A DNA stretch of 64,000 bases from Blasia pusilla (GCA_050084515.1 CM114271.1:22444001-22508000), one strand, 5' to 3'; counted from the stretch's first letter, positions 7,406 through 48,290 are shown. Notes: generated by a model not told the origin, from the letters alone. Numbers and translations are program-made.

Positions 7406-7590
7406 AAAATAGAAGTCCTCGGAGTACATAGACGATCACATTTGACAAGACCAAAAAAGATATTCAGAAAAATTTTACAAACACCATCATCGTTCGAAAA
7501 AATCTTGTCCTTTAATATATCTGAAAGAAGCTCGGAACTGTACATTTGATCTATTCTATAAAATATTTTTCCTCGTCATCAAATAAATCC
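6470..7590 (+). repeat. Direct duplication of ~430 bp (6470-6900 and 7159-7590)
   Basis: Both copies begin ggcaatcc.acaggt.ataggaatccaaca.gtcttagagaaga and end cctcgtcatc. Confidence 0.85.
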
Positions 7591-15262: not shown

Positions 15263-15430
15263 ACAGAATCAAATCCATTGTGTCAGACATTTTCACCTAC
15301 CAAACTTCATCTTGTCAGTCAAATTCTGTCAGGAGAATCTGAGTCCCTATTCGCTATAAATTAAACATTCTCATTCTCATTCGCATTCTCATACCAATTC
15401 TCTGTCTCCTCTCGGTGGAATCTTCTGGGA

Positions 15431-18400
15431 ATGGATGATTATGTAAAGCTCACTTGTGGCAGTCATCTAGCGGCCCTTCCTCAATCAGAAATCGTTCGAC
15501 CGCAAGCTCGTGAGTCTTTCATAGCAATGGATGAAATTTTTCTCTTAGTTCGATTTCTTCTCCAAATTGGAACCATCTTTGTATCCAAGGATGTTAGGGT
15601 GGACGGTACGGAGGACATAATAGGTGAGACAGTCCAGCCAATGATTAGAGACCGTAAAGTATGGAATCTCCTACCTCTAGCAAATGGTCAATACAGAGTT
15701 TACGGCTTGCCTCTGAATTCCTCTGTTTCCCAAGTAGATGGTCGAGAATTTCCTAGTGCACCAAGCTCTACATTTGCAACTCCTAGCTCAGTAGATCCGG
15801 CATCGTCTCCAACTTCACAGGCTCGTAACAATGTTGTACAGCCTGAAGATATTCTGGATGTCGTCAACCTCAATGGATCTGTCGGACACCAATCGGGTCC
15901 TCTGTCCGCCTACTTATTCCTCTTGCGAGTATCAGGAAATAGTTTGCTATCGTCTCTGGCCTTGAAAATATTCAAGCACATTCTTGTCGACGAGCTGCCG
16001 CCCACGTACAATGATAATTGCATTTTTGAGTTGCCTCCACTTGCTGCTCTTGCTCAAAAGAAAGATGGAGGACGATTGAAGGGTATGGACAGAAAGTTTG
16101 ATTGTCATCGATGATGCATGATTCAACGGACTAGTGCTTCAATTCCAAATGGTCCTTGGATTGTCTCCCGCCGCCAATGCGTTGGAGCCTTGGAGTGTAG
16201 AAGTCTAGCATGCCCGTATCTAGAGCGCAACGGGCGAGTCAATACGTCGCAATTCCCCCCCAAGAATGCAGAAATTCCATACAAGGTCGGTGCCACCATA
16301 CCGCCGGGAGGCCATCGATGTCCTCATTGTCAGACATCCCCCTTCTGCGTTGGAGCGTGTCCTGCATACATATTTTTCATTGTCCAGGACTTGGGCTCCA
16401 CGTCAGAGTACACAAGGCTGGCAGTTCATGTTGGCTCCCACACTCATCCTGTGACCGATGCAATTCAGAGACACATCAAGGAGGATGTGGCGAAGAAAGT
16501 TGCCAAGGTCTACAGAAACTCCCCCGGTTCAAAGCCCGGAGTGATCAAGCTCACAACAGCATCACAAATTTGTGAACAATTTCTTGGAATCCCTAGACAA
16601 GGCGAGATCACGGTTGCTCAAGAGAAACAACTTTGGGAAAATCTCGCATTTCTCGCTGATCCTGAATGCTTCCAAAATTTGCTGCGTCTAATATGGGTAC
16701 CGAATGGAAAGACGACCGAAATGGATGCTATTGCCAAAATCAAGGCCAACTCCAAATTTCCATTCATTCAGAGATGGAAGTTCATGGGCCAGGGAGGCGA
16801 GGGATCTAGGGCCTATGTCTTCAAAATGTCAACCACAAGTCCGTCGAGTGGCCTCGATCTTATAGATCGAATGAGGAAAGGGGAAGATCTTTACGGGAGC
16901 TGGGTAAGCTTTGATATTTGCTACAGAGTGCTGAACGGATGGTTGACAATGGGTGCTCACGTTTATGACCATGTGGAGAAGGGACTCAAAACTATATTTG
17001 TCTGTGAAGTAAAAGCACAAGACGTTGGCAGTTTGAAGATGTGCTGGTTACTCTTATTGGAGGTGGTGAAGGAAAACAAAAGGCCACCTCCGGAAATTTA
17101 TGGGTTCATGGCGGACAATGCACAACCTGGGTGGATTGCTATCAGGGAAGTGTTCTGGGGTGGAGAGGGAAAGGTCGGATGCTTTCCATTGGCAACAGTC
17201 TGTGACCCGGTACACCAAATCTTGCATCAAGGAGAATAAGAGGACAGAGCATGTCACTCTACTCCAACGCTGCAAGGACAACAAAACCTTGAAACATGCC
17301 ATGGAATGCCAAGAAGAACTTCATGGGTGGTGGAGGAAGCATGCAATTGAGGGGAAGTACAAAGAGTTGTGCTCTTGGCTGAGTTGGTGGACTGTACATA
17401 TGAGACAATGGGGAAACTTCATGTGGCAGGTGAGTTCAATATTTTGTCTTGTCAAGCTCACGCTGAGAATTATTTGAAAAGTTGCAACTCAAATTGAGAA
17501 GCGTGGGAACTATAGGGATTTCAAACGGAAGAAACCAAGCAACTTGTCGGATGCGACGGGTTGCCCGAGTGTGCAACCCGTCGGAAACAGACTGGTTGCC
17601 CGAGTGTGCAACCCGTCGGAAACGGACAGGTTGCCTGAGTGTGCAACCAGTCTGAAATCGACGGGTTGCATCAAGAATTTTGGTGCAATCCATATATAAG
17701 TATGCAAGTCGCATGTATACAAGGCCTGCAAATAGTTCGACCCGGATGGGTTTCGGATGACTTGCACTTGGATCTTCCAGCCCGGAGTGGCCAAAGGTTC
17801 TTGCAACCTGTCGGAATCGGACGAGTTGCAGTAGGTGGCTCCTGGGTGTTGCAACACGTTGGGATCCGACGGGTCGCAAAGTCGTTCATGGGATGCCTCG
17901 GCCTTGCAACCCGTCTGGTTCTGACATGTAACTTAATTCTTTGACTTTTGAGCTATTTTTGTTCCCTTCTATCATTGCCGTCGTTGCAGGGATTGAACAT
18001 TCATGAAAATGCCCTTTGCCCCAACACAAATGGAGCAGAAAGTGTTCATTCCTCCTGGAGGTCGTCACAAGCATGCCAACGAATTTCACTTGTGGAGGCA
18101 TGCCAACAAGACCATGCAAGAGCAATGCTACAATCTGCAGCATCCCATATCTTCCTCACAAAAGGCATAACAAAAGGAAGGGGGCCTTTGATCTACAAGC
18201 TCTATGTCAGGGCGGCTGTGAGATCTGGAGATGAAAAACTCTATGTGGAAGCCTTCAACCGGTGCGTAGTAGGAACTTCCCTCGAGCAAGACGTACACAT
18301 TGGTGGGAATATTTGTGGGTGGGTTTCAAGACGTCCCATACAGATGGTGGTAGAGCAGTCCGAGCGAGACTCGTGGAGACCAGATAAGTATCTTGTCTTC

Positions 18401-19491
18401 AGGCAGGTGAAGAGGCAACATCGAGGAACGAATCCGGTGATTGATTTGGATGAGGAAATTACACCACCCAAGTATTCTGGGACCCCGGACCGCTCCCAAA
18501 TCCGTGATGGAGTAACTTCTCCAAAATCAGTTAATGTTTTATTTCAAAAGTCCTCCATTGCTGGAAGTTCGCAACATCCGGTCGCTGGGGTGGTTCAACA
18601 ATATGGGATTCTGGTCATGGAGGTGGATTGCAACCTAAAACGGTGGCATATATCTTGGAGCAACCCGAGACGTGGACCCACTTGCAGGGCAAGATCTTAT
18701 GGCATTAGGAGAGCATGCGGCACTTTCCTAAATAAGAACTGTACAAGGACTGGACGACCAATGCCTTGGTTTTGGGGACTCAAAACCTTTGATCGTTTCA
18801 CGAGGACCTGGGATCAATTGAAGTTCTTCTTCTGCCCAAATGAATCTTGCGCTTTCCGCAAGTCTTATCCGGATGCCATTGGAGCTCCGGGGAATACCCT
18901 CACGATTTGGCCCACCGACGGAGGTACGAATTACACTCAAGACGAAGTGGACAATCTTACAAGTTCTGATTTCAGACTCGTAGACGGAGGAAGTTCAGAG
19001 CATGTTCACATTACAGAGACCTTTGCATTTCGTATTCAACCCAAGATTGACGTCAACATGTATCCGGAGAAGGTGGATGATCTCAATCCACTATTTCTGT
19101 TTGAGTCTAGAAATGGGGTGAAGAGAAACAGAAGGTGTAGGCAATGGTGGAGAGAGCAAAGCGAATTGCATTAGCTCGAGAGGCAAAAATGGAGATCATC
19201 GCCACAAAAGATGTCCACAGTGGCAATGGAATAGGAAGGATGTATTGTTTCAGGAACAACACTGTAAATTCAAGTGTCACACGGGTGTATGTGGTGCACA
19301 TCTGTTGCTTTCCCACATGTTCATGTGATGACTTTGTCCAAAGAGAGATAAGTGGCAAAATGTAGTTCCCTTGTAATCACATGTACTATGTGTTGCTTGT
19401 AGTTTTAAGAGAGTCGGAGGTAGGAGTAGGAATCCACCAACCAATTCTATCCCTCAAAGAAGTGCGAAGTATTTTAAACAAACCACTTTGA
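15431..19491 (+). pseudogene. Mutator-like transposase: GCM-like Zn domain, MULE DDE core, SWIM finger (decayed; one intron 17430-17989)
   Basis: Cys/His domain CVGALEC..CP...CPHC..CPA...HVGSHTHP. Catalytic candidates SFD (16913), MADN (17114), FHW (CxxH position) and TNGAESVH (~18040). SWIM CSC..PCNH (19318-19380). Phase-0 intron GTGAGT..TTGCAG joins ORFs 17100 and 17948. Stops at 16112 and 19363; frameshifts near 17165 and 19140. Confidence 0.85.
17535..17925. repeat. Palindrome array within the transposase intron
   Basis: About 7 copies (17539, 17572, 17607, 17643 at a ~35-bp period; 17801, 17850, 17905). Confidence 0.9.
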
Positions 19492-21474: not shown

Positions 21475-22165
21475 CCAAGGTCTTTGTAACCATCCTTTGT
21501 TAGTCATAGTTAAGTTAGAATCTATGACATGAAGCGCATAAGTGGGAAAAAATCAACCAAGAAGAGAAAAGACAAGATACATGAGATAAAGATGAGAGTG
21601 GGGCCATAGGTTGGTGAAAAGAAAGATAAGGATGAGGTTGAGGAAGATGAGGTTGGGACATTAGATTCCAAAGGAGATCCTCTCATGCTATGAGAGTAGG
21701 ATACGTGGCATAAGGATAGGTAGAGCTAATTTGTCTTCATTGTACCTATCTCTAAGTATATAAAGGAAGAGGAGAGGCCTTGAAGGACATTCTACCTTTG
21801 AGCAACTCTAGAGTGGTTCCGTGAGGTGGAGAGTTACAGTCTTTCCTCTATCACATATTTTAGGATAGATCAACGAGATCTAGTAAAGAGCCTTTGCGGA
21901 TAGTGGAGGACAACCTCAAGAGGACGATGATGACCTGCTGAGGCCACGAGTAACCCGAGAGAGCAGGTTTTACCTTCTTTTTGGCTCATTTGGAGCCATA
22001 TAGAGAAAATTACTATTTTGGGTTAGTCTCCATATTGAGTATAGTTGACTTTCCACTTTGAGAAGTGGATCTTGATCCACTACAGTAGGTCAAGAACTAA
22101 GGAGGTGATCTATAAGCATAAGTTACCATGGAGAGAGCTTGGGAGAGGGAAGGGGCTATACCTCC

Positions 22166-22168
<3 letters not shown>

Positions 22169-22230
<62 letters not shown>
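22169..22230. repeat. (AG)n microsatellite
   Basis: About 31 AG units. Confidence 0.95.
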
Positions 22231-22233
<3 letters not shown>

Positions 22234-22274
22234 TCATTCTCTCTTTATAAATCAAGTAGATCTCTCCATCACAA

Positions 22275-22600
22275 GGTCTCTCTGACGTGGGTATGAATGG
22301 TTGCTATGGTGCAACCCCATCTCGGACAATAGAACTCGACTGCTCATCTGCAAGCAACTCCAAAATTTCATCTCTTCCACCTCAAGGACCATGAACTACA
22401 CTTGATGTTGTGGTGCCATATCATCTCTCGGTGTATCTGCAACACATTCCAAGAAATTCAAGGGTGTCTCTCTCGATCACCCTCGGCATGTCAATCTCCT
22501 CGGATCTTTCCCCCAGCCACTGCCTCAACTGCCTCGGTAGGCATGGGGCTCATCAATGCAACCAGCCGCCATCTGCAATTGGGCACACATTTGGCCGGAT
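22275..22600 (-). mobile_element. Inverted internal fragment of the same gypsy family
   Basis: Reverse-complement similarity to 28030-28310 (translations YLQHIPRNSRVSLSITLG vs YLQHIPRDPRVSLLITLG). Confidence 0.8.
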
Positions 22601-25600
22601 TCTCTCCGCAAACTTCTCCGTAGCCAATGAAAGTAGCCCTTGCAGCTCCCGGGATAGCTAGAGGTTTCCCATACCTACCGTAGTCTTAAGGCCTCTCGCA
22701 ATTACCGTGCCTATCGCACCCTCTTCTCCTTTGCAAGCGTCGTAACCCTTTGGCCTTTTGACTGCATGTTTCCTCCCGCGAGCCGCATGTGATAGCTTTA
22801 ATCGAGTTATCCGCTCAACCAGCATGTATTAGCTATTCGCGTCCAACTTGCTAAACCTTGACCGGCCGCATTTATTGTATGGTGACCCGCAACTCCTCCA
22901 AAATCAGTATTTGCTACTACCTTGATTTGCAACCTTGTGGTCAACCCCGCAGTTTCGACTGCAGTTCTATCCGTAAAAAATACCCTAAATGCCATCCACG
23001 CTTACTCTTGCTGCCTCGCAACATCCGACCACTACCTAGCCATGACCCTCCGCCATGCTTGACTATGTAGTCGTCGACCTGTGCGCAACTGCCTAGCTAG
23101 AAGTCTGCAACCGCATGTGTGGACGCTATCAACTTGACGCCGATGTTGCCTCCATGTTTTGTCTGTCCGTTGCTGGCGATGTTGTTCAACCTGTTGTCCT
23201 TGTTAGACTTTGCCGTTACTCATTGGACGGTTGTGATTAGCAGTCGTCAACTCACCGAATTTTTGCAATTTTGTTACACATTGATCGTTAGTTTCAGCAC
23301 TGTCCAGCGACGACAGGTGACATTTTGGATTGATGGGGTTGCAATTTCCTTTCTGATTTTCAATGTCTTGAGTTATAGCCGCTCGACAACAATCGAGTAC
23401 CATGCCATGATGCCCGTTGCCGCAACGCGCCGTTGATTGTTGCGTCGTGCTGCTCGTGGCCGCACCGCACAGTCTAGATCTCGGAGCCAAACCGTCATTG
23501 CGGAGTAGAGGATGTGTTTTTGATTGAGGAGGGTATGTCGTTGAGAGCCGAAAACCCATCATCGAGTGCCGTGCCGTGCCGTGCCGCTGGACCCGCACCG
23601 CACATCAAGGAGGTTTGAGCATCGTCAGTACCAAAGGAGTGCGACTTGCTAATTTGAGGAGTTTGTCTTCATGACCGAGTTGGGGTCAAGATTTTCACTT
23701 GTGGAGGAGTGACATCGATATTGTTGTCAAGTTACCCATTCTGGTCTTTTTCCCTACACGTGTGAGGGAATTCCCATTATTAGATAGTTATCTGGGGATA
23801 TTGGGCTTCGTGCAGATGTTGAGAGCATCCTTGATGTATGTGGTATAGGGAAAAATAGACTTGTATGGGATGTTTAGAGTTGAGGGTATGTTCTATAGAT
23901 GAGACGATAGATCAATCGATTTGCCGTACCACCCTGCTTGTTGACGCACACTACACGTCTAAGTGAGAGGGAGTGTAGGTTGCATTGAGTGTCGCATGTT
24001 TGATTGAGGGATTTCTTGCAAAATTGAGAGTGATCATGTGAGAGGGGAACGAGGGTCATCACAGCATCCTTTCGGGACTTTGAGAGGCAAGGTGGTGGAC
24101 TTGAGAGTAGCTCTAGAGGTTTTATGCCGAGTGGCCCGAGATTTCAAGGGTCTCCACCTGAGGGACCACCTCGACCTCCTTCTATATCGTCTTCAAACAA
24201 GGGGGAGGGCATAGAGGAGTTTGTTAGTGATTCACCGCACACATTGAGTGCTCCTACTAGTTGGATGTACGAGATGGACGCCCGGGGTAGAGGACCGCTT
24301 AGGTTTTCAAGAGCAGTGGGCACGATAGAGTTGCACGAGTTCATTGTAGAGTTTAGGAGTAAGTGTGACTAGTAGTAGGCTAGGAACTTTAGAGAGTTCA
24401 ACCCATTCACAGCATGGAACAACATATTCCAACATTTAGAGGGAGCGCCCATGGACAGTTACAATGAGTTCTCCCGGAGATATGCCCATGAGATCGAGGC
24501 ATGGAGACTCTACTATGACCCATACTATGTGTCATAGATTGAGTCGTTTCCAGATGAGGAGGAGGATTTAGGAGAGGCTACTTCCTCCTCCACTAGTGAC
24601 GTATTAGGAGGGGTGAGTCGGATTGGGGTAGTTACATCATCCAGTCAGGTTCATACTAGGTTCAACCCCGTGGTTGAGTTCTTTGCGGAGTTACGGACGA
24701 ACCACCAAGGGGTACGGGGTGAGAAGTTATGGAGCATCCATGACTTCCATAGGCACCCAAGTGAGAGTTTGCATGAGGAATTTACTCGAATGCGTTGATT
24801 AGTATCAGTCAGGGGATGATAGAGTCCTAGGCTATCTAGACATAGTACGCGATGCTAGACCGAGAGTTGCGGAAACGGGTGGGGGATGGGGTACTTCTTA
24901 TGCGCATCTCACCTATGTTGAGAGATGTTTTTGAGATCGCAAAATGTATTGAGGGCAATATGGATGAGTAGAGCATAGAATCCATAGGTTCCGTGCAAGA
25001 GCAGTCACGATTGCCTACACCACTAGTTTAGCAATATGGATTTTAGGAGAGGACTGTGGCACCACGAGCTCAGGGAGGATACCCGGAGTGTATGCCACAG
25101 AGACATGCGCCATCATATGCGGTGCATCAGTAGCTGCAAAGGATTATTTTTTGGGCATGTGGTGAAGCCCATCACGAGTGCGATTGCACCCATCGCGACT
25201 GTGGACGTGTGCCTCACTATTGAGGAGGAGATGGATCTACACGAGGAGTTTACAACTGTAACCATTGTCAGAGGTATGGTCATACACGTACACAATGTTT
25301 CAGCCTACACCTTGAGTTACGTCCGGACCAAGGGCCAAAGTGGGCACCAGAGCGAGTTGGCGATCCGGGTGGGCCTAGAGGTCGTGCACCAGGTGGACCT
25401 GTTGGGGGACGAAGAGTTGGATTTTCCAAAGAGGGTGGTGGAGTTGCCCATGGAGGAGGTAGAGGTCCGCCACCTAGAAAGGTTGAGGGGGGCATGAGGT
25501 TGGAATGGTTGCTCATATAGAGCAATTGCACCGGCAGATTGCCGCTATGTCATTGAGGTTATTCGATGTCAGATTAGTGGCATCGACGTCTTATGGAGCA

Positions 25601-27050
25601 GCCAGAGACATGGAGGATCCTGGTTGGATGTGCGCGGCTGCACAGATGGAGGCATCCATTGTTGTTATGCATGGAGTAACTGTAGAGTTGGATCCGCAAA
25701 GAGAGGAGGCTAGAAAACAGACATGGCTTCCTCAGTCTTTTACTTTATCTCAGGCAATGAGGACCCCATCGATGGGTTCTGATGAGAGTTCCTAGAGGGT
25801 TGATGTTGTGGATGTGCAGGCATAAAGGGCGATGGGAGAAGAAAGTGCGATGACTCCTATTGTAAGTGCTCAGATGGAGCCCATGTTAAGTACATTTTTG
25901 GGGGCGGCCTTTGCTATGTATCGCCCCCCATTGTTTTTTGCTTCCGATGTTATGATGTTGGGAGGTACGCCCGCCGAGGTTTTTCGGCTGGCCACTACGC
26001 TTTGTGAGCGTGGAGTTGGTGTTCTTGCCTCACGATAAGAGGTGATTATAGAGGAGGTGGTGGACCAGCCCTTGGAGCCTATGCTCAGGCCTTACACCTC
26101 AGAGTCATGGCAGGTTGCGGCTACTAGGATGGCGGAGATGCCCATCATACCGCTCCTACTGGAACATTCCGGGGGTAAAAACTAGGCCCTGCAGTTATCC
26201 CCTGACAACCTGCTATAGAGAGTGCCTTGGTATCTCCAAGTGTTGGCTTGCTAGATAATCAGGGAGAGGTCTTCAATTTGGTGAGTCCAAGAGGTAAGAT
26301 TTTTTTTCTGCAACGCATCTTGTTGGATTCCGGAGCGCAACCCCTAATGTTGGGGAAAGCGGCGTTTACAAGGTTGGGTCTGACAAGGGTCGATGTGGAG
26401 AGTTGCCCATTCAAGATATAGGCATCCTTGGCTGGAGTGAGTACAACACAATTTATCACCCGACATGAGGGTTGTGGTGAGGATTCGACCCTGACATCTA
26501 TCAGGTGAGTCCGTGGTGTGAGCCAAGACGATAGTGACCGATGTCGAGTCCTATGACGTCTTGGTTGGAGATGCAATTTTCTACTTGATGGGGTTTTCCT
26601 TGGATTATTGGGAGGATTCAGCGTCCTATAGACCATGATGGCAGTCACGTGAAAGGTGACTTAGCTCATGACCTGTGTGATTCACATGTGGAGTAATCAA
26701 GCGACAGCCAAGAGGAATGGCGATATTATCATCATTCAGTAGCACCATCACGTGAGCTAGTGATTTGATTAAGGGGCATGTCCATGTTGAGGACACACTC
26801 GCGCCTGACACTTCTAGGGAGAGGAGTGTTATGATAACCGCATTATTCTGTGGAGGAGAGGTGCCACTGTAGGGTTCAAGTGAGGAGCTTTAACACTTGG
26901 CCAATGAGCACGTGGAGACAATGTGGAGTGAGACATTTGCACCGGAGCATGACGGGTCAGAGGAACCTGAGGTAGCCAAGAGTGCTACTATGACACCCTT
27001 GGACACCACACCGATTGTGTGGTGCAGCCTAGAGGAGGGTATCCGAGCAC

Positions 27051-27990
27051 ATGTTGGATCTCTTTGGAGGGATTAGCATTGGGTTGGCTGTTATTTGCAA
27101 ACAGAAGTGCACGTGCAGCTGTACCTATATATTGAGCTTGATGAGATTGCAAGGCGGGTTTCACTATGACATGTGGTGCAATTACGCCTCCAATTTCTTG
27201 ACTTTTTGTCTGCGTCCAGCGTACAGAGGTTCCACAATTCCCTACAAACGGATATTTTGTTGCTGGGGGCGCAGGACTTGGAGTGGGTAGGGACCATTGA
27301 TTTGGTCATTGCTGGTTGGCCATGTTAAGGCGAGTCGAGTGGTGGACAAGGTAGCAGGTTGGCTGACACTCAATCTAGGTTATTTTGGGAGATGATGAGG
27401 ATCTTGCAACACTTGCATGCGCATCAACCCCGTTCTCTAGCGTACATTCTCGAGAATGTGCCAATTTTGGGCGATTCGAGGTCCCGTGTGATGATGAGTG
27501 CACATCAGGTGTGCGCATAGATCGGCCCCGTAGTGTTTTTGGATGCGGCGAGTGTAGGTTCACGAGCACATTGCTTGCATCTATGATGGACCAACTTGGT
27601 GCCACATGAGTTATTGGGGAGGGCTTATGCGAGAGTGGAGGGCCCCTACAATTTCGTTGGTGGACTCTATTCTAGTTCCCGTTCGTCAATCATAGGTAGT
27701 GAGGCACGATGATCGACCACCGTTGACTATGGTCAACAATATTGGCATGGCACGGGAAACCTTTTCCACATTTGTGATTTTTCCCGCTTCTTATGCATAC
27801 AAAGAAGTCGGGCCTAGCTTGGTTTGGGATGACCAACTGTAGCTGATGGTAGAGACCAACGTCGATGAGCGAGAGTGAGCGATGGGATTTCCCACAAGAG
27901 TGACAATAGTACCGTCATTAAAGGCATCACGACGTCATATCTTGGGTCAGGAAATGGACTTGAATTTCTTGACATAGATCATCAGCTTGG
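27051..27990 (+). pseudogene. C5 cytosine DNA methyltransferase domain within gypsy pol (decayed)
   Basis: Motif I LDLFGGI; motif II YLYIELD; motif IV IDLVIAGWPC*G (27311-27331); LFWEMMRIL; motif VI YILENV (27452-27460); motif VIII GSRAHCLHL*WTN; motifs IX/X ERE*AMGF...ILGQEMD (~27865-27960). The motif order is canonical. Confidence 0.9.
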
Positions 27991-28710
27991 GAGTAGTTGA
28001 GCAACATCCGATGAGGTTGCGATAGGTCACAGCTATTGCATTGGTAAGCCCCATGCTTACCAAGACAATTGAGGGATCGGAGTTGCTGCAGGTGAGATTT
28101 GAGGAGATCGATACGCCAAGGGTGATTAAGAGAGACACCCTTGGATCCCTTGGGATATGTTGTAGATATGTCGAGAGATGGCAGCCACAACATTGAGCGT
28201 GGTTCATGGTCCTGGACGTGGAGGAGATGAGATTTTGGAGTTGGCTACAAGGGAGCATTCGAGTTCTATTGTCAAAGACGGGGTTGCACCATAGCAACCA
28301 CCGATACATGCACCGGAGAGTCCTACCGTAGTCACGATGGAGACTAGGGAACCAGATATGGGCCCTAAGTTGACAAGAGGAGAGTGGTGCTGGATACTTC
28401 AGTTCCTTAGGAGTTATAGGATTTTTTTGCATTTAACATGTAGGATTTGGGTACGTTGAAGGGTCTAGGGATCCGCATTGATTGTCTAGCAACACGCCAA
28501 TCTTACGATGACATTACAAGTACAATGATATGGAGAGGGCTCTAATTTAGAGTAAGAGCGAGGACTTGGTTGGAATAGGACTAGTGGAGAGTATGCATCT
28601 GCCAGTGTCATGTCTGCCAAGAAGGGTGTGCATGGAAACTGGACGGATAGGCGGATGTGTGGAGATTACCAACCCATCAATCGGTAGACGAAGTTTGATA
28701 GGTATGCCAT

Positions 28711-29033
28711 CAAGGTTGCATGTGGAAAAATTCCATGTCCGCGGACTTATATCCGTCCTATGGAAGGACTTGTCCGTATGGGCCCCACCTTTCTCTTCTT
28801 TCTCATTCCCCTTACTTGCCTTCGTGTTCCATACTCCCCCATTTCTTCCTCCCTCCACCTCCACCTCCACTCCCTCATCCCTCATTGCTCCTCTCATCCT
28901 TGCCTTTCCTTGCCTTCCATCATGGACTAAAAGTGTGGGTCCCACCTCTCGGAACGTATATTCGTGGATATGTCCAAACTTGTCTGTCCATGTCCGTCGT
29001 AAGGAAGGACTTGTCCATTTTTGTGCAACCATG
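28711..29033. mobile_element. 323-bp hAT-type MITE inserted in the RT
   Basis: 8-bp TSD tatgccat (28703-28710 and 29034-29041); TIRs caaggttgca / tgcaaccatg; removal restores the RT reading DRYAM..EEIFD. Confidence 0.85.
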
Positions 29034-31564
29034 TATGCCATGCTCACCCTTGAGGAGATCTTTGATGTTATTGGATATGCAAAGGTCTTTAGTTCGTTGG
29101 ATCTTCAAGCCGCATACCATTAGCTGCCTATCAGATTAGAGGATAGGAAAAAGACAATATTTTGGTGCATCAACCCTCATGGGAAGGATTGCTTGTACTA
29201 GCGGCGTGTCTTACCATTTGGGTTAAAGAACACTCCGATTGAGTTTGAGAGGGTCATGGATAGGATCTTGGCAAGTTTGGATTTTGCTAGGTGTTATATT
29301 GACAACATGGTAGACTTTAGCGCCACGATTGAGAAGCATGAGCGACATCTGGAGGACTTGCTTCAATGATTGCAATTACATGGGCTGAAGCTACATCCAG
29401 GCAAGTGCAAGTTCTTTAACGACCAGATTGAGTACTTGGGTCATACGATATACCTAAGTGTCACTGGTGTGCAATGGACGAAGATAGAGGCTATTTCAAG
29501 CATTCCACGCCCTACAGATATGAGTTCAGTGTATGAATTCATGGCCTTAGCAAACTTCTATCGACGGTACTTCAAGGGTTTCAGTTTGATTGCAAAGCCG
29601 CTAACCTTACTAACCAAGGTGGATCACGAGTGGCATTGAGAGGATAAGCAAGAGAGAGCATTTCAGCTGCTTAAGGACAGGTTGACGTCCGCACCTATAT
29701 TGAGGAGACCAATCACTGGGCGTCCTTTCCAATTGCATACAGATTGGAGCATGTTGGGGCTTGGAGTGGGGCTCACCTAGCATGATGGTGAGGGTAGAGA
29801 GTTTGTGGTGGCTTCTGCTATTTGCTTGAACAATGGTGCGGAGGCAAAGTACAGCTCGTATGAGAGTGAGTGCTTGGCTACAATGTGGGCTATCGCGCAT
29901 TTCAGGTGATATTTATTCGGAAACCCCTTTACCATGGTCACTAATCATCAAACACTTAAGTGGATGATGGAGTCTGACAAACTTACATGGAAGCTTGCAA
30001 GGTGGGCTCTATTCTTGCAGGAGTATGACCTCCAGGTAGTAACTAGACCTGGGACGCTCAACCAAGATGCAGATGGTTTGAGCCGTTACCCATGCCTGAA
30101 TCACAGAGATGCAACTAGAGCTTTTTGGCATGGAGAGACTGATGAGGAGTTGGTGCCATGATGGCACGTGTGAGCCTATTTGGGTTCGTTGGCTATGGAG
30201 AGCCAAAATGTTGAGACTTTGATGGTGAGGTCTGATGGAGAGTCCTTGGATCTAGAGGCTAGTGAGGAGACGACGGGTGGCCGATATATTCACGAGGATA
30301 GAGTAGTCTTGGAGTACCTGTATACTTGCAGCGTCATGAGCATAGTGGATGCTAGAGAGCAAGATCAGATCCTACAGCGATCCAGGCGGTTTTGATGGAA
30401 GGGGACACACGTGTCGCGAATTTGGGAGGATGGTAGAGTACATGTAGTGCCTCATCCTTCATAGAGAGCACATTTGGTGAAGCATGCCCATGAGGAGTTG
30501 GGTCATTTTGGAGTGAAGCGGACGTACAACTTGCTCCATATACAATATTGGTGGAGAGGCATGCAGACTGATGTTGAGCAATTTGTTGCCAAATGCATGG
30601 TGTGTGCCGGGCCCGCGCATCATTCAATGCTCCGACCCCATAATTTCATTCACTTTCGATCATGGGTTTAGGCTATAGACGGAGTTTGGATTTTGCAGGA
30701 CCTTTACCTTTGATGGATCGGCATAGTCATTCTATGTTGGTGATGGTCAAACACTTCTCAAAGTGGATAGAGTTGGTTGTATTTCTTGACTAAGCGAGTG
30801 AGGGAGTAGCGTATGCCTTCCAAGATTGAGTGTTGAGTCATTACGGCGCACCAGGTGAGGTGTTGACTGAACAAGGTAAAGGGTTTCTCGGGAAGTTTTC
30901 AGGCCTTGTGTGATCAAGCGTTGATCGACCACCGCACCACTTCATGAGATCATCTTAAGGCGGATGGACTAGCGAAGAGGGTTGTGTAGACAGTGAAGAG
31001 AGGTTTACGTAAGTATGGCTTGCAAAGAGGTCACCTAGGAGATAGGGACCTCCAATTTCCGTGGTTGGTGATGGAATACAGATTCAAAAAATTGGCCTCT
31101 TTAGCGTCTTCCTCACCGTATTTGTTGCTTTATGACCGAGAGCCAAATTTTCTTGCGGCCATTCATCGAGATGCTAGTGAGGTGTTGAAAATTTATGACC
31201 CTCATGCATAGATGGGAGCATATTCTTAGAGGGTTGAGTTGTTTCAGAGAGTGATGCCCATGACGTTTGAAAACTTGGCGACCTTTTTAGAGAGTGATGT
31301 CCATGGCGTTTGAGAACATCAAGATATTGGATTTATCAAGGACGCTATGTCTACTTGCAACAGACAGTGCCCACGACGTTGGATGTGACTACTTGGCGCA
31401 CTATCTTGAGAGTGCGTGAGGTTTTTCCATCTGGTGTTCTCTTATTTGAGGGACGCGATGGTATAGTTTCAGAGGACCATGTGCGTAACTATGCGTCATG
31501 TCATCTTTCTAACATTGACGATACATTTGATCTGAGCGTAGTAGTAGTTCTTGTAGGCTTGTGA

Positions 31565-31699
31565 TGTATGTTGTGTGATTTTTCCTGTGATGCAACCACT
31601 ATGCTACTCTATGATGGATATTCAAGAGGATGGCATATGATATGTCTGTCGCCACCTCTCACTAGGGTTCCTCGAGGACAATGGATGTGCCCAGATGTA
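31565..31699 (+). pseudogene. PHD finger at the integrase C-terminus
   Basis: CMLC...MLLYDGYSRGWHMICLSPPLTRVPRGQWMCP; two Cys appear mutated TGT>TAT. Confidence 0.85.
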
Positions 31700-32543
31700 C
31701 ATAGAGTGGTTAGTTATAGATTCTAATTTATGTTTGTGACATGGATGACAAGAAGGTGACTAACGATGGGATCACATGAGCACCCGACCATTTTGATCTC
31801 AGCGTCTTAGAGATGTATGTGATGGTAGGTAGGGATAGATGGCTATCTAGAGTTAGAGGGACCTAATCACCAGCTAGGGGGACGATTGGAGATATTTTGG
31901 TACTTCTTGTCTTTGTTCTGTGGATTCCATGATTTAGCATGGTATCGTGTGTGTTTGTATACGCATTTGGTGAAAGCAATGTATGTTGTATAGCGATGTG
32001 TATGCGTGCAAAAATTATCACTTATTTTAGGATAGATCAACGAGATCTTGTAAAGAGTTTTCGCGGGTAATGGAGGACAACCTCAAGAGGTCAAGGATGA
32101 CTTGCTGAGTCCGAGGGTAACCTGAGAGAGCATATTTTTCCTTCGTTTCGGCTCATTTGGAGCCATATAGAGAAACTTACTATTTTGGGTAAGAAACATA
32201 GTTAGTCAACCTCAACCATTTTTTCAATGTCAAAAACATACTTTTTTTCTAGTATTGAAAACTTTAATTTTTCTAAATTTTAATGGGCGACTATATGGGT
32301 CCACTTTGGGAATTGGCCCTTGACCCACTACGGTAGGTCAAGAGCCAAGGAGATGACCAGCGAGAGCATAGGTTACCATGGAGAGAGCTTGTGAGAGGGA
32401 AAGAGGATATACCTCCAAGAGAGAGAGCTTGAGAGCTTATTCTCTCTTTATTGAACCTCTTGGCATGAGGCGACGAAGCTATGATCCTCCTTGCCTTGTA
32501 TTTGTAACCCAAGTCTCTCATTAGGATAGTGGGTTTGGTTTGA

Positions 32544-32545
<2 letters not shown>

Positions 32546-32621
<76 letters not shown>
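32546..32621. repeat. (GT)n(GA)n compound microsatellite
   Basis: Read directly. Confidence 0.95.
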
Positions 32622-32623
<2 letters not shown>

Positions 32624-34523
32624 ATGCACATTTGTGAGACCTTGTGATGGAGTGAACCATTTGATTTAATTGAAGATTTTTTGGTACTTCTTGTCTCATT
32701 GTGTGGATTCCATGAGTTAGCATGGGATCGTGTGTGTTTGTATGTGCATTCGGTGACATCGATGTATGTTTTGTAGTGATGTGTATGCACACGACACCTC
32801 CTTGGGGGCCTCATGACCATGACTCACTTCCAAAATCCCTACTAGCACTTGGGCGCCGGGGGGGGGGGATGTCACTAAAATGAAAGAAAGTCCTTACATC
32901 ACTTGTGATCTTTTAGGGTTTAGAATCCCTAACCTATGAATGAAAAAAAAAGTTTTTGCTCACCCTTATGTTCTTTCAAGACATCCATTTGTCAACCTCA
33001 AAAACATACTTTTCTTCTAGTATTAAAAATTTTAATTTTTCTAAATTTTTCGAGAGAGTTGTATAGGAGTTTTAATGTAGACTATACAATCAGATAGGTA
33101 ATAGATTTTCAAGGCCCCAAGATACAATGGGATCCCTCCAAGTTCATGATTCATAAACTTCAAGAAACATATTTGAAAAATCACCATCGTGGTTTGCAAA
33201 TAAGTCATAAGACAATCAAAGGCAAGAAGAAAAGAGAATCCTTGTTTCTATCAAGAAAACTAATTACTTAAATAATGAAAGTATATTAATTCTAGACATG
33301 TTAAGACCTTTGCTCAATTACATGTTTGAGGTTTGGATTTAAAGCCTTTGGGAGCTTAACCAGGATGCAATAATGTCCAAAAGCCTTTAAGAGCTTACAT
33401 TTTGGAGTATATGTTGTTATCGCCGCCACTACGAGCTTCAAATAGATTGGTGCCTTTGTAGTATCTTCATGCGCTAAAATGTAAAGCAAAAAAGAGATTT
33501 TGTGTTTCTACATAATACAAATTTAATAGATACAAACATCATCTTTTATGTAACCAAGAAATATGTGAAAAAGGATGATATAATCAAAAAGAAAAACAAC
33601 CATATCCACTTTCCTCTAATAGAAGTTATACTTGAGAGATCGGGTTTTTGTATAGACGTGGTTGGAGGGTTAAATTGTACTCTTCTTTTACAAAATCTCC
33701 AAGCTTGCATAGATTGTTATGAGGGGATAGAAGATGTCAAAATGAATTGTAAGAGGATATTTATGCTCTATTATTCCATGAAAAAAAATCTTCCAAAACT
33801 CAAAAGGATTTATTCTTCAAAGAGTTTGTGTCATAAAGATCATTCGCATTGAAAAGGCTACTGTAATAGATGTCATTTGAAGCTTTGTTCACATGTTTGT
33901 CCACATAATTGGACCTTCTACTTGCCAATTTTCCCCACAATGGAAAATATGAAATGGTTAACAAAAAATATTGATTGGAGATTTCTAGTAGTTCTTGTGG
34001 AGTGCTCCCACTCATGCTGGTTGGCCTAACAAACACACATGGTTGGGGAATGAATGAAACAAAAGACTCTAACTACCGGTAATCCTAGTTTCATAACATG
34101 CTCGTATTGTTACCAAGGGTTTGGAGGAGCCAACCAATGATCTTGTTACATTGTGTCAACCTACTCATGATGTTTTAGTAGGGCCCACGTAATCATCCCA
34201 TACACTGATAAAATCCATGCATGATTTAACACTCAATTATCAAATCGTGTGTCAAGCGTGCAATGATTATTCAAGTAACTTCCAATGTGCTTTGACAATC
34301 ACGAATCAAACATTCATGCATCATGGGATGATATGGGCCATACGTTGTCCCTTGTTGATCATGAGTAGGTTAGGGACATTCTCTTTCATCCCTAGTCTAT
34401 TTTCTCACAATTTTGATAAAAGCACCACTATTTTACAACTTTCATTTCAACCTCGAGTGTGCAAACTAGGGCCCATGTTTTATGGTCCTAGAATGGTCGC
34501 ATTAGGCTATATCATCTTGGGAC

Positions 34524-35368: not shown

Positions 35369-38300
35369 TCAGGGCTGCCATGGAGGAGGAGGGGGAGGAG
35401 GGGCGACGTACATGTTGGGGAGGGATGCGAAGAGTGTGTTGCGATCGACTCCGCTCGGAGCGACTTCGGAAAGGGCGATGAGGGCGCCCACGAGGCCGGC
35501 GTTGCCGGATGTGGTGGGTTCAGTGAAAGTGTAGTTGTTGCGTTTGTCGAGAAACTTGTCGTTGGAATCCGGGCCGCCCACCATGGCGCCGATCACGTCG
35601 TAGCGGTTGTTGCTCTTGGAGTCTCTGAATTTGAACCCGCCTGTGCATCCGTAGTTGTTCTTGTCCATGGGAATCGACGCCGCTCTGTGATGCACTTGCT
35701 TGGGGTACTTGTTGCCGAAACCCACCACGTAACTCATTCCCAAGGGATTCTTCCCCAAGATGTAGTCGATCTACAGTCGAACGAATCGGAGACACAATAT
35801 CGTCAGACAAGGAAGGACGGAACTACATGTGCAGCGCATTGACAGAAGTAGATTAGACGGTGATAGAAATCTTGTCAAGAGTTTGTAACGATCATACATA
35901 CGGGCACGGGTAGGATTCTTCCGAGGGCTGTAGTCGATCTACAGTCGAATCAGAGCAGCATCTCGTTGGACACTGAAGGAGGGAACTAGATAGATGTACA
36001 GAGAATTGGCAGAAGTAGATTAGACGGTGATGGAAATCTATGTCCAGTGTTTATAAAGATCGTGAGCCAGTAAAGGAATCTTCCCCAGGACGTAGATGGT
36101 CTACGATTTACTCAAAGGTTTCGTCTATCTACGATCGAATCAGAGCAACGTCTCGTTAGACCATGAAGGAGGGAATCGATATACTGAGAGCATTGGCAGA
36201 AGTAGATTAGACTGTGATGGAATTCTTGTCAAGGGTTTGTAAAGTTCATGGACCTGAATAGGCTTATTCCCCAGCATGTAGTTGATCCACAGTCGAATCG
36301 AAGAGACATCTTGTTAGATTGTGCAGGATGGAACTAAGTGTGCAGAGTTGGGAGTGTATTAAACGGCGATGGAAATCTTGTCCAGTGTTTCTAAGGTTCA
36401 TGGGTCTACAATCGAATCAAATCGACATCTCGTGAGACAGTGCTGGAGGGATCTAAATGTGCAGACTATTGGCAGCAGTGGATTAGACGGTGATCGATCT
36501 CTGAAGGCATGGAATGAATAGAAAACCAACCTGTGAACGAGAGAAGTTCCGTAACACCTCAGAAAGGAACATATTAGGACCACAAAACCATCCGGGTATA
36601 TCTGCAGTGGTGAGATAATCCGCATACAGAGCAGCCATAAACGCTGCATTCGCCGCGTACTGAAGAGGTGCAGGTCTTCCATGGTTGAACAGCGTCAATC
36701 CCCCTGTTCCACGCGTGAGAGGTAAGCATAAATAAACACCAAAACCCCACCCCAATTCACCGCTCAGATGAGCCACAACTATGCACCGCGGATGACTAAT
36801 CATTTTCATGAAATCCGAAGACTGAAAACATTCCCGCAGATCTAGGGCTCACTAGCCTTCGCGCAATGGAGAGCATATATTCCCAAACGCAGCATTAGAA
36901 GCACTCGTGAGAGTGCTGATAGCAAGCAGAATACCTTTCGTCCTTTTGAATGCTTTGAACTGAGGTAGATAAGAGCACATCACGACATTGGTCTGATTGT
37001 TGTATTGTCGCAGAAGCTCCTCATACGGATATGGTTGCCCTTGCATGAGTCTGAGCCGCGTTAGGAGCATCTGAAAGGCCACACAACCACCGGAGTCAGC
37101 TGCAAATACCCCCTGAACACGATTTCACAAACTTTCAGAGGCAGCCTTGCGACCATATTCCACACCTCACACCCTGTTTGCCATTGCTGGCAATGGCAAG
37201 GCCGAGAAGTGGAGGACGTTATTCTACATAAGGGAGACATTAACGTAGTGTGAATGTGTGCCAAGAGAGTAGTACAGGTCCATGCTTCTAGAGGACAACC
37301 AAGAAGCTACACAATCGTCGTGACCTGGATTAGTGAATAGAGGCTGCGTTGGTTCACTGGTGTTTGAGGCTGTGGTGGAGAATTAAGTTGGATAAGTAGT
37401 ATCTGAGAGGAAGGGCGACTCTTGTTAATTGTGAGTGCTTCAATAACAGAGTGCCAAGCTCGTGCTTCCATATGTTAGTCAGCGCACGAACTCATCACAA
37501 CAGAACTTTCTTAACCTGAAGTGGGACCCCAAAGACCAGTGGGGCAGAGATGGGCAGCGAATCCAGACTATTGAACGTGACGACACGCTCTCCAGGAATT
37601 GTTGCTCTTTTGGCTGCAACTTTCTTGCAACTCAGCTGGAATTGTCTGAAAGTTCCATACCCATCGCCAGCCAATTTTGGTTCGAGTACCCTTCCTACTT
37701 TCTATACTTCGAAGCATCAGCCACACCCATAACTTTAGTCAGGATCACCGTGCAGGAATCTCTCGTGACAAACAGCTCTCGAGGACTTCTTGTTGCTGCT
37801 CTTTCAGCTAACACTTTCTTACAACTAGGCAAGAATTGATTGAAAGTTGCATCCCCATCGCTAGCTAAAGCAGGATTTTCGTTTGAGTACTTTCTATATT
37901 TCGAGGTATCATGAGCCCCTGCCCTGAACTGTAGTCAGCATCCCCGAGAAGAAATCCCTACGATAGCACCTGCGATCTGCTGGGTCAGGGTGCACAATTC
38001 GGAGGATTTGCTCATAAAGTAGTTCATGTCATAGACTTTAGATGTAGGCCTCATGCCTCCGAATGTCGGTGCCAGTGATCTCCACAGGTGAGGAAGCAAG
38101 AAACAGAAAGAAAGTAGAACATGACATGTGGAAAACTCTCTCATGGTGTAATAACTTCCATTCAAAGGAGCAAATAGACACACACTCTTTTCCCATTCAG
38201 CTGCGTCTCTCGCACTACTGCATTCAGTAGAACATAACTTGTTCACGATCTGGGCCATTGAACGAGTACCCTGATACTTCTCTCATAGAGCGTGAGTGCC

Positions 38301-41196
38301 GACCATTCAGAGAGCTGGTGGTGAGCTTCCAAGTATGAACCGAGAACAGCTTCTTTACAACACCATCACTACCACTGCACTTGCTGACCAGTGAATCCAG
38401 CCTCCCGAAAATGATGAATAGCTCTGGTGTGAGAGATACATATTCTCTCTTTACAGAGGGAGAGAAGAGAGAGGGAGAAGATAGAGAGAATGCATGAACG
38501 GATAGATTTTTTGTCCAGAGAGAGTGTGCGTGGATGCATATTTTCTCTCTACAGAAGGAGAGGAGATAGAGAAGGAATGAAGAGGTTTATTGTCCATAAA
38601 CTCTACTCATTTAGTAGTGCCTGTCCTAGCCTTGCCACCCTAGACCCTGGTTGGACGGTGCTTGAGACCTGGATGGGTGTAGAGAGAGGAAAAAGTGGAG
38701 AAGGTACCATATCCGAGGAGGGAGACACTGTCATATAGTAAGGGTGCTGACCATACAACGTGTTGGTGCGGAGCTTCCAAGTGTCAAACAGGAAGCTCTT
38801 CACCACACCATCCACTTCACCCGATTGGGATCCCCAATAAACATTACGTACCAGTGGAGCAGCTTTGGGCGATGAATCTAGGCTACTGAATGTGTTGAAC
38901 AATTCTGGTGTTACCAGCTTAGCAATATCAGCATATGCTCTTGCTCTGTGTGTCACGAATTTTGTGCAGGAGACCAAGTAGAGACTAGAGGTTTCATTCA
39001 TCCCCATCATCACACACAAGGCGCAAGAGTTTCATTGTGTTCCCATCGTGCTTTCCTTATGATTCGAGGAGTTGAGGAGAGAGAGAGACTGTACTCATTA
39101 AGTAGTGCCTGTCGTAGCCTTGCGACCGAGAGAGAGACTGTACTCATTAAGTAGTGCCTGTCGTAGCCTTGCGACCATAGACCCCGCGCCCTGGTTGGAC
39201 GGTGCTTGGACCGAGAGAGAGAGAGAATGAATGAATGAATGAATAGATTTATTGACTTAGTTTTGACACTTAACAACAAATTTGGAGAGAGAGCAAGCAC
39301 CAGCGAGGGCCTAAGGGGTCCTCAGAGCCAGGTGAGTGTCCCTGGTCTTCACACAACTATAAGAGAGAGAGAGAGCGAGGCTGCATACCTGGGCACCCAG
39401 AAGTTTGTTGTCCCAACTGAGGACGCCATAGTAGGGCCATCCGCCACTCGCCCCGGCATTCAGCGCTAGCCGTTGATTGGTAACTCTTGCGAGATACGTC
39501 AGGTTTCCAGTTGCGAAGTACAGCCACGACCCAGCCCACAGGAATTCATCCCAATAGCCTGTCGAATTGTAGAAAGCCGCCGAGTCTTTGACAGAATTCG
39601 AGTAGCGATTTCTCTTGCCCAAGTCCTGCGAGAATCGGTATAGCGACCCCGAAGCGTTCACGAGTTTCGTAGAGTAGGCGTTATCGTCCTTGAAGACTAT
39701 GGAGGCCGCAGCCAAAGCCGCTGCCATCTCTGCGCTCAAATCAGACCCAGTAGTCACAGAGAACGCAGGCCGTTTGTAGTCCATCTTCTCGGGCCTCTCC
39801 CAGCAGTGATGGTCATTGGGAGAAGTCGGAGTAGGTAATGTCCCTTGCCCAACCTTCACACACGAAACCAACGGGTTAGAATTACTGCGCGACTGCATGA
39901 TTCGGCTTCCAATTCAGAAGCAATCCTTTCGTCTCCTTCCAATTCGCGAGCTTCAGCTCATCGCTCAGTTCCGCGGACGCGACAGAAACGCTTTTGGCAA
40001 CTACCGGCAACGACTACGCTGTCCAGAGCGAGCAGTGATGGGAGTTTGCTCCAGAGCAGAGCAGAGCAAACTTCACGGCAATCACAGGGTAAGGAATCCA
40101 AACATCTACCTGCGCGAATATGTATGCCACATCTGTGGTGTTCACTGTGTAGTTGAAAGTCTTCAGCAGATAATCCGTGCCCCATTTGATGATTTCTCTG
40201 ACATGTTCGTATTCTTTAGCCGCTTGATACTTCGCTTTGTACTCTATGACGCTCCAACTGAGCAGCGTGAGGGTGTAGGCGGTGGGGAACGTGAACTTGA
40301 TGTTGTCCCCAGCATCATAGTAACCTCCCACCAGGTCGTGAGTGGGTCCCCCGGGACCGGAGACATCGCTGCCATCCTTTAAGCCCGAGTCACCTCTCCA
40401 TGAAATGTTGTTGTTCTTCGGTAGCTTTCCGGCTGAGACCAAACATAGACGAGTCGCGGAAATCAGTGGGTGGGGGTGGGGGTGGGGATGGGGGGAAGGA
40501 AAGCGATTTGGAACAACGATTCTCCGGATAAACACTATGACAAGAAATTGCGAAGGAAAAACGGAAGCACTTGAGAGTGTGCGCTGAGACGACTGTTGGA
40601 TGTTCGTTTCTTTCCTACGAATCTTGCGAAGTGGGCTACCAATCATGGGATGGGCTGAAGAAGCCATACGAAGAATCAGATCGTCGCCAGAAAAGCACGA
40701 CGAACGTGAGATGCTACGTTGACTTTACAGCCGCGCCAATTGATGGGGGAATTCAGTGCGAGCACTGCGGGAAAGTTCGACCGACTAACTGAAAATCGAG
40801 AGAGAGAGAGAGAGACGATGAGGAAGTCCGGGACGTACACTTTTGGGCGTCGAAGAAACGAAGAGCTTTGTGTAATGCCTGAGTGTAATTGTCAACGATC
40901 GGACCACCGCCGTGATGCTTCGGCAGAGTCTTGACGAGGAGAACTGTGAGGCCGGCAATGAATCCGCAAAATACGAAAATAACCGTGATGGTACAGCACG
41001 CGCGCCGACTAAGAATCATGCATCCTAGATCTATCCCCTTCTTCTTCTTCGGCTCTCCTCTCCCCAGCAGCCAACTTTGCTGCGTTTCTTCCAAAGCCCT
41101 TACGGAGGCCTGGTCGACGTCCGCATTGCTCCGGTCATCGCCGTCGGAGCCGGATCCATCGACCTTGTCCGACGACCCTCCCCACTTGTTGTACAT
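35369..41196 (-). CDS. KOR1: Membrane-anchored GH9A endo-1,4-beta-glucanase, KORRIGAN-type (618 aa, 6 exons)
   Basis: Exons 41196-40839, 40432-40110, 39853-39389, 37070-36935, 36703-36531 and 35770-35369; all GT-AG and frame-consistent (1857 nt). KOR hallmarks EETQQSWLL, a TM segment, [30 protein letters not shown] and a PPPPPPWQP tail. The symbol means KOR1-like; exact orthology was not tested. Confidence 0.95.
35745..36500 (-). repeat. Decayed tandem copies (~120-180 bp) of the intron 5/exon 6 junction
   Basis: Recurring gtagtcgatctacagtcgaa and gcagaagtagattagacggtgatggaaatcttgtc near 35762, 35930, 36090-36135, 36278 and 36405. Confidence 0.8.
38604..39211 (-). mobile_element. Possible LINE/SINE 3' remnant in GH9 intron 3
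   Basis: ORF 38603-39019 fragment, plus three copies of tactcatt.agtagtgcctgtc.tagccttgc.acc (38604, 39092, 39142) beside GA microsatellites. Confidence 0.35.
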
Positions 41197-48200: not shown

Positions 48201-48290
48201 TTGAAATATCCATATGTATTAGGGACACATAGTCAACATTTGAAGAATTGATTCTATTTCAAATCACCGAAGAGATACGAGTAAGATGTC

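Follow-up and report, generated by a model that had tools for sequence, protein, structure and literature searches.

A decayed Ty3/gypsy-type retroelement carrying a DNMT3-like cytosine methyltransferase in a liverwort-like genome, and its relatives in land plants and algae

Does a C5 cytosine methyltransferase (DNMT) sequence that lies between the protease (PR) and reverse transcriptase (RT) of a Ty3/gypsy retrotransposon belong to the element, or is it a fragment of a host gene? The question is raised by a 64,000-nucleotide stretch of Blasia pusilla DNA (GCA_050084515.1 CM114271.1:22444001-22508000; this whole stretch is hereafter the window, with positions counted from its first letter), in which an earlier reading of the sequence alone, here called the original prediction, had placed such an arrangement. 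Our analysis revealed that positions 21849-32788 (+) of the window hold a single decayed Ty3/gypsy-type retroelement with gag, PR, DNMT, RT, RNase H (RH), integrase (INT) and a PHD finger in this order (Table 1). We read it, with a probability of roughly 0.88, as a pseudogenised copy of a streptophyte 'Gypsy-DNMT3'-type retroelement.

Stop-to-stop open reading frames (ORFs) over 22-34 kb are short, and positions 24001-32003 were translated in three frames with stops as X before being searched with Pfam. Pfam and tblastn place PR, RT, RH and INT on one strand in the order of Ty3/gypsy elements, and a CCHC zinc knuckle, also a Ty3/gypsy trait, is present in a gag region colinear with Marchantia proteins; this gag-PR-DNMT-RT-RH-INT order agrees with the predicted Ty3/gypsy element bearing a DNMT between PR and RT. 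The Marchantia polymorpha protein P0286 (1278 aa) is colinear with 24289-28255 through gag, PR and DNMT at 33-48% identity (tblastn). From 29016 to approximately 31300, and on to the PHD region, the window is colinear with protein P0077 and with ORF2 of L025, an uninterrupted element at 976-8229 of a 9.3-kb metagenome contig, which consists of an ORF1 of 1369 aa, an in-frame TAG and an ORF2 of 1047 aa. Residues 107-148 of L025 ORF2 align to 28580-28705, and the alignment is taken up again by residue 148 onward from 29034.

Pfam identified RVT_1, RT_RNaseH, Integrase_H2C2, rve and PHD in L025 ORF2, and DNA_methylase (E 1.8e-13) together with weak aspartic protease matches in L025 ORF1, among them a weak Asp_protease_2 match to the region corresponding to the window protease. 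The integrase region of the window aligns colinearly with its counterparts in P0077 and L025 ORF2; the rve model, which scores in these colinear relatives, has no score on the decayed window copy. Phage_integrase (tyrosine recombinase) gave no match in the window or in the seven relatives scanned by Pfam, where Integrase_H2C2 and rve were found instead. The PHD region of the window is 52% identical to residues 915-1032 of L025 ORF2, whose PHD finger is recognised by Pfam at E 2.6e-10.

The DNMT motif content of the window is far beyond chance. Motifs I, II, IV, VI, VIII, IX and X, located by three-frame translation and alignment to relatives, are all present in the predicted order on the plus strand between PR and RT. 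The Pfam DNA_methylase model (PF00145), which had been proposed as a check, matches the translation of 27251-27487 alone at E 2.4e-7 (31 bits, cut-off 22), and tblastn with a Marchantia polymorpha protein reaches E 1.5e-106 over 26468-28255. A phmmer search of 1.84 billion representative proteins with the frame-2 read-through of 27080-27868 returned 678 matches at E<=1e-3, including 187 at E<=1e-10, the best of which is protein P0001 (E 3e-40, 56% identity). The original prediction described a domain broken by stops and a frameshift; the disruption is present, and its extent had been understated, with eight stops in the 263-codon frame-2 stretch and motifs I and IX/X in another frame. The window copy does not keep the key catalytic residues: PCQ is interrupted by a stop at its Q, and motif VIII has an altered RxR.

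By sequence and predicted fold the family DNMT is closest to DNMT3, with motifs I to X in order, as judged from the ranking of PDB matches and from a fold search. The window stretch alone retrieved DNMT3B and DNMT3A first from the PDB (E ~1e-3). A family profile retrieved DNMT3A (E 4.8e-25), DNMT3B/C (~1e-21), DRM2 (2.8e-12, covering profile positions 11-138 only), M.HaeIII (1.3e-8) and DNMT2 (7.8e-7), and no chain named DNMT1 was among its 57 PDB matches. An AlphaFold model of the intact relative P0007 (pLDDT 91, pTM 0.90) was compared by Foldseek; all matches listed, to rank 50, are DNMT3A, 3B or 3C chains, and the best among them is 6w89_A (E 4.3e-21, TM 0.81). Identity with DRM was rejected because the motif order is unpermuted, whereas DRM has motifs VI-X before I-V. 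Across 14 intact relatives there is no variation in the motifs FxG, AGWPCQGH, ENV, DAA..GS.AH..R..WTNL and ERERAMGF, which argues for a working enzyme in the family. No PWWP or ADD reader domain was found by Pfam in P0286 or L025 ORF1, which have gag and protease upstream instead.

Carriage of a DNMT characterises the family as a whole, and the domain is not a stray host fragment. Named profile searches (66 and 123 matches) and cluster look-ups identified eight carrier proteins in Marchantia polymorpha (e.g., Mp_4g09160 and Mp_8g17980), and other land-plant carriers are Calypogeia fissa, Sphagnum troendelagicum and Sphagnum jensenii. Family proteins are also carried by Closterium NIES-54 and NIES-68, homologous DNMTs occur in chlorophyte records (Chlamydomonas eustigma, Scenedesmus sp. 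and Monoraphidium neglectum), and 311 of the first 600 pattern matches are metagenome stretches encoding relatives. Among 162 full DNMT domains, 49 have PR upstream or RT downstream, 67 have RH upstream or INT/PHD downstream and 46 have neither; these two layouts are mixed in none of the 116 flanked proteins. The original prediction had itself named the contrary case, a separate host-gene fragment absent from other family members. This case fails because of the 49 relatives with PR upstream or RT downstream, and proteins with gag-PR-DNMT recur in the Marchantia, Calypogeia, Sphagnum and Closterium records. The intact copies that it suggested looking for are represented by the uninterrupted L025 and by L036, which has the same ORF1-stop-ORF2 layout.

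Copies are numerous in public sequence data. Four public runs from a single coded organism each contain 10,605 to 64,160 contigs that match the element at >=80% likeness and fill all 30 element bins, DNMT bins included; these contigs are short and give the presence of copies, not their intactness. The window itself is shared by five DNA runs with small shares of 0.05 to 0.09, and no RNA run was among those listed, a result that is silent on expression. A separate observation concerns P0353, a family DNMT labelled as belonging to a bacterial metagenome-assembled genome (Candidatus Obscuribacterales); its contig is 2.4 kb long, and the bacterial label is probably due to mis-binning.

In a FastTree phylogeny of 174 DNMT rows, the window falls in a 13-row clade with Shimodaira-Hasegawa (SH)-like support of 99, which includes seven rows from Marchantia, that from Calypogeia and the only Sphagnum row in the data set. 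This clade is nested in a 62-row set (support 89) that contains only PR-side or unflanked rows, both Closterium records included. Two changes across the 121 labelled rows suffice to account for the PR-side and RH-side layouts, and the DNMT tree keeps the two almost apart; its support is SH-like only, and some long-branch joins were flagged.

The Marchantia proteins terminate at a stop that is conserved in the family. Of 33 Marchantia-like loci reaching the end of ORF1, 25 have GCN-stop-CAA-CC at the homologous place (18 TAG and 7 TAA), a pattern relaxed to stop-CAA-CC after the junctions had been read, as the strict TAGCARYYA occurs at the ORF1 end in none of the 33. In the window, the coding sequence before and after TAG CAA CCA at 28292 shares one frame. 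This junction and those of L025 (TAG CAG TTA) and L036 (TAG CAA TCA) fit UAG-CARYYA, which is given in the available text of PMC5382211 as the type I leaky-stop motif of plant viruses (tobamoviruses), and the match suggests read-through here as well. Because the conserved stop follows the DNMT in frame, the DNMT is, as judged from these sequences, the C-terminal part of the predicted Gag-PR product, at the end of ORF1.

No canonical pair of long terminal repeats (LTRs) directly flanks the element; the window has an A-coding-B-A-B layout, and the same A ... B-A-B arrangement is found in the related loci L019 and L011. By blastn, A1 and A2 are 87% identical over 21849-22026 and 32016-32193 and 82% identical over 22052-22184 and 32300-32435; a search for the B repeat near A1 on both strands gave scores at shuffle level. 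In L019 the A pair is 91% and the B pair 93% identical, and in L011 the A pair is 92% identical and the B pair was found by local alignment. The L001 contig ends inside A2, locus L029 has no A or B pair within sufficient flanking sequence, and the 9.3-kb L025 contig showed no terminal repeats. A purine-rich tract (..CCAGCTAGGGGG..) stands directly before B1 in three diverged elements, namely the window copy, L019 (17110-17146) and L011 (10200-10237). It is a candidate plus-strand primer site, in which case B would begin the LTR-equivalent.

The window copy is dead: all parts are in order, and no protein can be made from them. The aligned segments contain 61 stops (38 against P0286 and 23 against L025 ORF2), 27 of which stand opposite Q, R or W of the relative, as transitions would give, and the frame changes at least 10 times. 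The insertion in RT has 10-nt terminal inverted repeats (CAAGGTTGCA / TGCAACCATG) and is flanked by an 8-bp target duplication, TATGCCAT, at 28703-28710 and 29034-29041; we take it to be a hAT-like miniature inverted-repeat transposable element (MITE). Contigs joining 28701 to 29033 without the insertion were found in run X2 (three) and run X4 (one). CpG depletion was rejected as a mark of the element, the observed/expected ratio being 0.62 versus 0.69 for the window and 0.55 for the intact L025.

The 5' leader further contains an inverted 264-bp fragment, which aligns at 78.5% identity with 28036-28300 read in reverse complement. Translated on the minus strand, it gives matches to the linker peptide in five proteins from Marchantia and one from Calypogeia (E 0.007 to 0.37), and no inverted linker copy was found in L019, L011 or L001. 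We considered and rejected a DIRS-like internal complementary region. Because the internal partner is native coding sequence and the relatives are without such a pair, the fragment is probably a piece of another family copy or a rearrangement.

Table 1. Features of the decayed retroelement and positions of the DNMT motifs in the window
Feature	Position	Strand	Remarks
Repeat A1, 5' terminal repeat	21849-22262	+	3' part blurred by an expanded (GA)n at ~22170-22232; short continuation past (GA)n by eye
Inverted fragment of the family's DNMT-RT linker in the 5' leader	22298-22561	-	
gag remnant	24265-25322	+	CCHC zinc knuckle CNHCQRYGHTRTQC at ~25260; tblastn with P0286 and P0289, 33-47% identity
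Aspartic protease remnant	26197-26640	+	DSGA at 26326-26337; tblastn with P0286 residues 595-705 and later; three-frame translation
DNMT3-like C5 cytosine methyltransferase domain	26990-28000	+	motifs run from I to X; disrupted by stops and by >=3 frame changes
DNMT motif I (LDLFGGISIGL)	~27051-27092	+	short frame-3 stretch
DNMT motif II (YIELDEIA)	~27125	+	frame 2
DNMT motif IV (GWPC, followed by a stop in place of the Q of relatives)	27314-27328	+	frame 2
DNMT motif VI (ENV)	27452-27460	+	frame 2
DNMT motif VIII (DAASVGSRAH..WTNL)	27542-27598	+	frame 2
DNMT motifs IX/X (ERE-stop-AMGFPT...RRHILGQEMDLN)	27864-27962	+	frame 3
Native in-frame stop ending ORF1	28292-28300	+	TAG CAA CCA
Reverse transcriptase remnant	28295-29450	+	Pfam RVT_1 E 4.8e-23 on 29049-29450; split by the insertion
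Insertion in RT, 323 bp	28711-29033		
RNase H remnant	29643-30026	+	Pfam RT_RNaseH E 1.2e-24 (29721-30026); RT_RNaseH_2 E 4e-22
Integrase remnant	30456-31300	+	H2C2 zinc domain 30456-30608, then core; Pfam Integrase_H2C2 E 2.2e-15
PHD finger remnant, ORF2 C-terminus	31565-31693	+	Pfam PHD 19.6 bits, below the cut-off of 24
Purine-rich tract (..CCAGCTAGGGGGACG)	31850-31884	+	directly upstream of B1; polypurine-tract-like
Repeat B1	31885-32005	+	86% identical to B2 (32669-32788)
Repeat A2	32016-32668	+	with extra sequence and (GT)n/(GA)n runs
Repeat B2, 3' end of the element	32669-32788	+	

What the DNMT might do for such an element can be framed from the intact relatives. Their ORF1 encodes gag, protease and a DNMT3-like methyltransferase and ends at a single in-frame UAG; beyond it lies ORF2, with RT, RNase H, a DDE-type integrase and a PHD finger, which would be made by read-through of this UAG. 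In that case the level of DNMT would resemble that of Gag, and the enzyme could become packaged in the particle. In line with the proposal of de Mendoza et al. (2018; PMC5890265), a packaged DNMT would, in the particle or at integration, methylate the new complementary DNA (cDNA) of the element or its surroundings; the window copy would then have decayed in place and been hit by the MITE. That methylation of its cDNA, or of the element itself, is the function of the family DNMT is a tentative proposal, to which we give somewhat less than even odds.

The main rival to self-methylation is a non-self-methylating or non-catalytic role. The family DNMT would then be real and conserved without methylating the element's own cDNA. 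Its target might be the chromatin or RNA of the host, or it might be mainly a module for binding DNA or chromatin; acting with the PHD finger, it could direct integration or weaken silencing by the host. That the elements carry a PHD finger, a histone-tail reader, is consistent with such a role, as is the report that the Klebsormidium domain did not methylate DNA in yeast, a result that its authors call inconclusive in the available text (PMC5890265). However, PCQ, ENV and the S-adenosylmethionine-binding FxG are invariant in the 14 intact relatives, as expected of an active enzyme, and the SymbioDIRS-Dnmt3 domains are described in the same source as methylating CG de novo in yeast. We consider a role of this kind unlikely.

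The two other alternatives concern what the window sequence is. If the DNMT stretch were a host DNMT3 or DRM fragment beside or inside an ordinary gypsy element, by chance juxtaposition or one-off capture, the nesting that it implies would have parallels at this very locus, in the inverted leader fragment and the MITE in RT. Yet gag-PR-DNMT is colinear residue for residue with seven Marchantia proteins, with the intact L025 and with the layout of the 49 PR-side relatives; the linker after the DNMT continues into RT in P0323 and P0077; the motif order is not that of DRM, and no introns were seen; and the uninterrupted ORFs of L025 argue against the relatives being annotation chimeras. We regard such a fragment as extremely improbable. 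Scarcely less improbable is that Marchantia-type gag-PR-DNMT genes have been domesticated and that the window holds a pseudogene of such a gene instead of a transposon copy. The eight Marchantia polymorpha records are indeed annotated as ordinary proteins, most of them ending just after the DNMT, but they end at the family's conserved stop, RT-RH-INT-PHD follows the ORF in frame and terminal repeats bound the element in the window and the loci, and the copies are many and mostly decayed.

Taken across the family, one old gypsy-like lineage with split repeats and a catalytically intact DNMT3-type enzyme might span Zygnematophyceae, liverworts and mosses, with a chlorophyte sister layout RH-DNMT-INT-PHD. 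In its streptophyte members the DNMT would belong to the abundant Gag-PR product, upstream of a UAG programmed to leak, and would act from within the particle to methylate the DNA of the element in land plants that possess full methylation machinery themselves; activity may persist in some copies, such as the uninterrupted L025 and the Marchantia ORF1 models. We offer this wider picture as a possibility that falls short of an even chance.

Several observations weigh against the reading of the window as a copy of a Gypsy-DNMT3-type element or against parts of it, and the yeast result for the Klebsormidium domain is one of them. The A and B repeats of the window and L019 are unlike in sequence, and a primer-binding site after A1 was not recognised in an inspection by eye only. 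The tree was built with FastTree only, and its window row has 263 residues with eight X. Most of the relatives fetched are decayed, an open frame of >508 aa being present in only 3 of 80 loci. At the ORF1 end, most Marchantia-like loci match the type I leaky-stop motif (PMC5382211) except in the last base, with CAACCC and not CARYYA, and 7 of the 25 stops are TAA; read-through is inferred from conservation and context only. Kinship with the Klebsormidium element KnitGypsy-Dnmt3 would be indicated by the shared DNMT3 type, gypsy domains and repeat layout, not by sequence alignment, and the liverwort-like host assignment derives from one gene.

This gene, a GH9 endoglucanase (Pfam) at 35369-41208 (-), is intron-bearing and apparently intact, and is presumably of the membrane-anchored KORRIGAN type. 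One exon-bearing ORF of it is 82% identical to the endoglucanase of Marchantia polymorpha and 74% to that of Riccia sorocarpa, with lower values for the mosses and seed plants listed, which fits the land-plant-like genome of the original prediction and suggests a liverwort-like host other than M. polymorpha itself. An Rfam scan of the window for plant RNA markers returned 0 matches. Elsewhere in the window, 15365-19174 (+) contains three adjoining open frames of 249, 374 and 409 aa without a Pfam match, for the middle of which protein-atlas features point to MULE transposase clusters (score 0.95) as a lead only. An unrelated decayed reverse transcriptase at 4400-5041 (-; RVT_1, E 6.4e-14) is a remnant of another retroelement. 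Tandem arrays are present at 48288-49540 (period ~340 bp), at 11028-11347 (~64 bp) and at 13073-13398 and 14676-14867 (~67 bp).

Retrotransposons that carry the host's own silencing enzyme had previously been described from only a few algae. The window copy is itself only a fossil, and together with its relatives it extends the DNMT-bearing gypsy kind to land plants, both liverworts and mosses, including the model Marchantia polymorpha, where annotation lists its copies as no more than hypothetical proteins. The use that a transposon has for a DNMT of its own thereby becomes a question testable in a genetically tractable plant with known methylomes. Experimental handles are offered by the DNMT in the Gag-PR frame ahead of a conserved stop and by the combination of a DDE integrase with DIRS-like split repeats.

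The catalytic domains of animal DNMT3A, 3B and 3C, which are the best sequence and fold matches of the family, have the same motif order; identity is ~23%, and the family domain differs in being fused behind gag-PR without PWWP or ADD and in its motif X, LGQAMD. Among the retroelements, the sister layout RT-RH-DNMT-INT-PHD (P0025, P0058, P0063, P0331 and others, with the chlorophyte records) shares with the window family a homologous DNMT, gypsy-type RT, RH and INT and a C-terminal PHD finger, but its DNMT lies between RNase H and integrase. The available text of a 2026 preprint (bioRxiv 10.64898/2026.05.21.726589) refers to 'streptophytes (Gypsy-DNMT3)'. The EpiLTRs and DAM-LTRs treated there are likewise LTR retroelements with DNA methyltransferase domains; they differ in that their DNMT groups with DNMT4 and is attached to pol at its 3' end, alongside adenine methyltransferase and chromodomain modules.

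Consistent with the original prediction, DNMT-bearing retrotransposons are reported from Klebsormidium nitens and Symbiodinium by de Mendoza et al. (2018; PMC5890265), who in the available text describe them only from Symbiodinium and Klebsormidium, Marchantia and liverworts being unmentioned there. We found no paper describing such elements in liverworts or mosses in a search that lay outside subscription journals and supplements. The kind is thus already known, and its presence and abundance in land plants, the placement of the DNMT in ORF1 before a conserved stop and the two mutually exclusive layouts appear to be undescribed in the literature searched. Klebsormidium proteins were neither among the named matches of our profile searches nor in 20 clusters.

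As described in the same source (PMC5890265), SymbioDIRS-Dnmt3 shares with the window family a DNMT3-like domain in a retroelement polyprotein and A-coding-B-A-B repeats; it has a tyrosine recombinase and dinoflagellate hosts, whereas the window family has a DDE integrase with an H2C2 zinc domain. The A-coding region-B-A-B arrangement is the DIRS layout, and KnitGypsy-Dnmt3 has it despite its gypsy domain set (PMC5890265). The published description of KnitGypsy-Dnmt3, by which alone the two are compared here, also includes an unpermuted DNMT3-type DNMT in the coding region, gypsy-type domains, intronless copies and a streptophyte host, in common with the window family (PMC5890265). Its host is a charophyte alga, whereas that of the window is a liverwort-like land plant with a dead copy, and in the window family the DNMT ends ORF1 before the conserved UAG. 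With gag-PR-DNMT as a family trait, a liverwort-like host and the same A-coding-B-A-B layout as KnitGypsy-Dnmt3, the earlier suggestion that the algal strategy also existed in a land-plant-like genome is supported.

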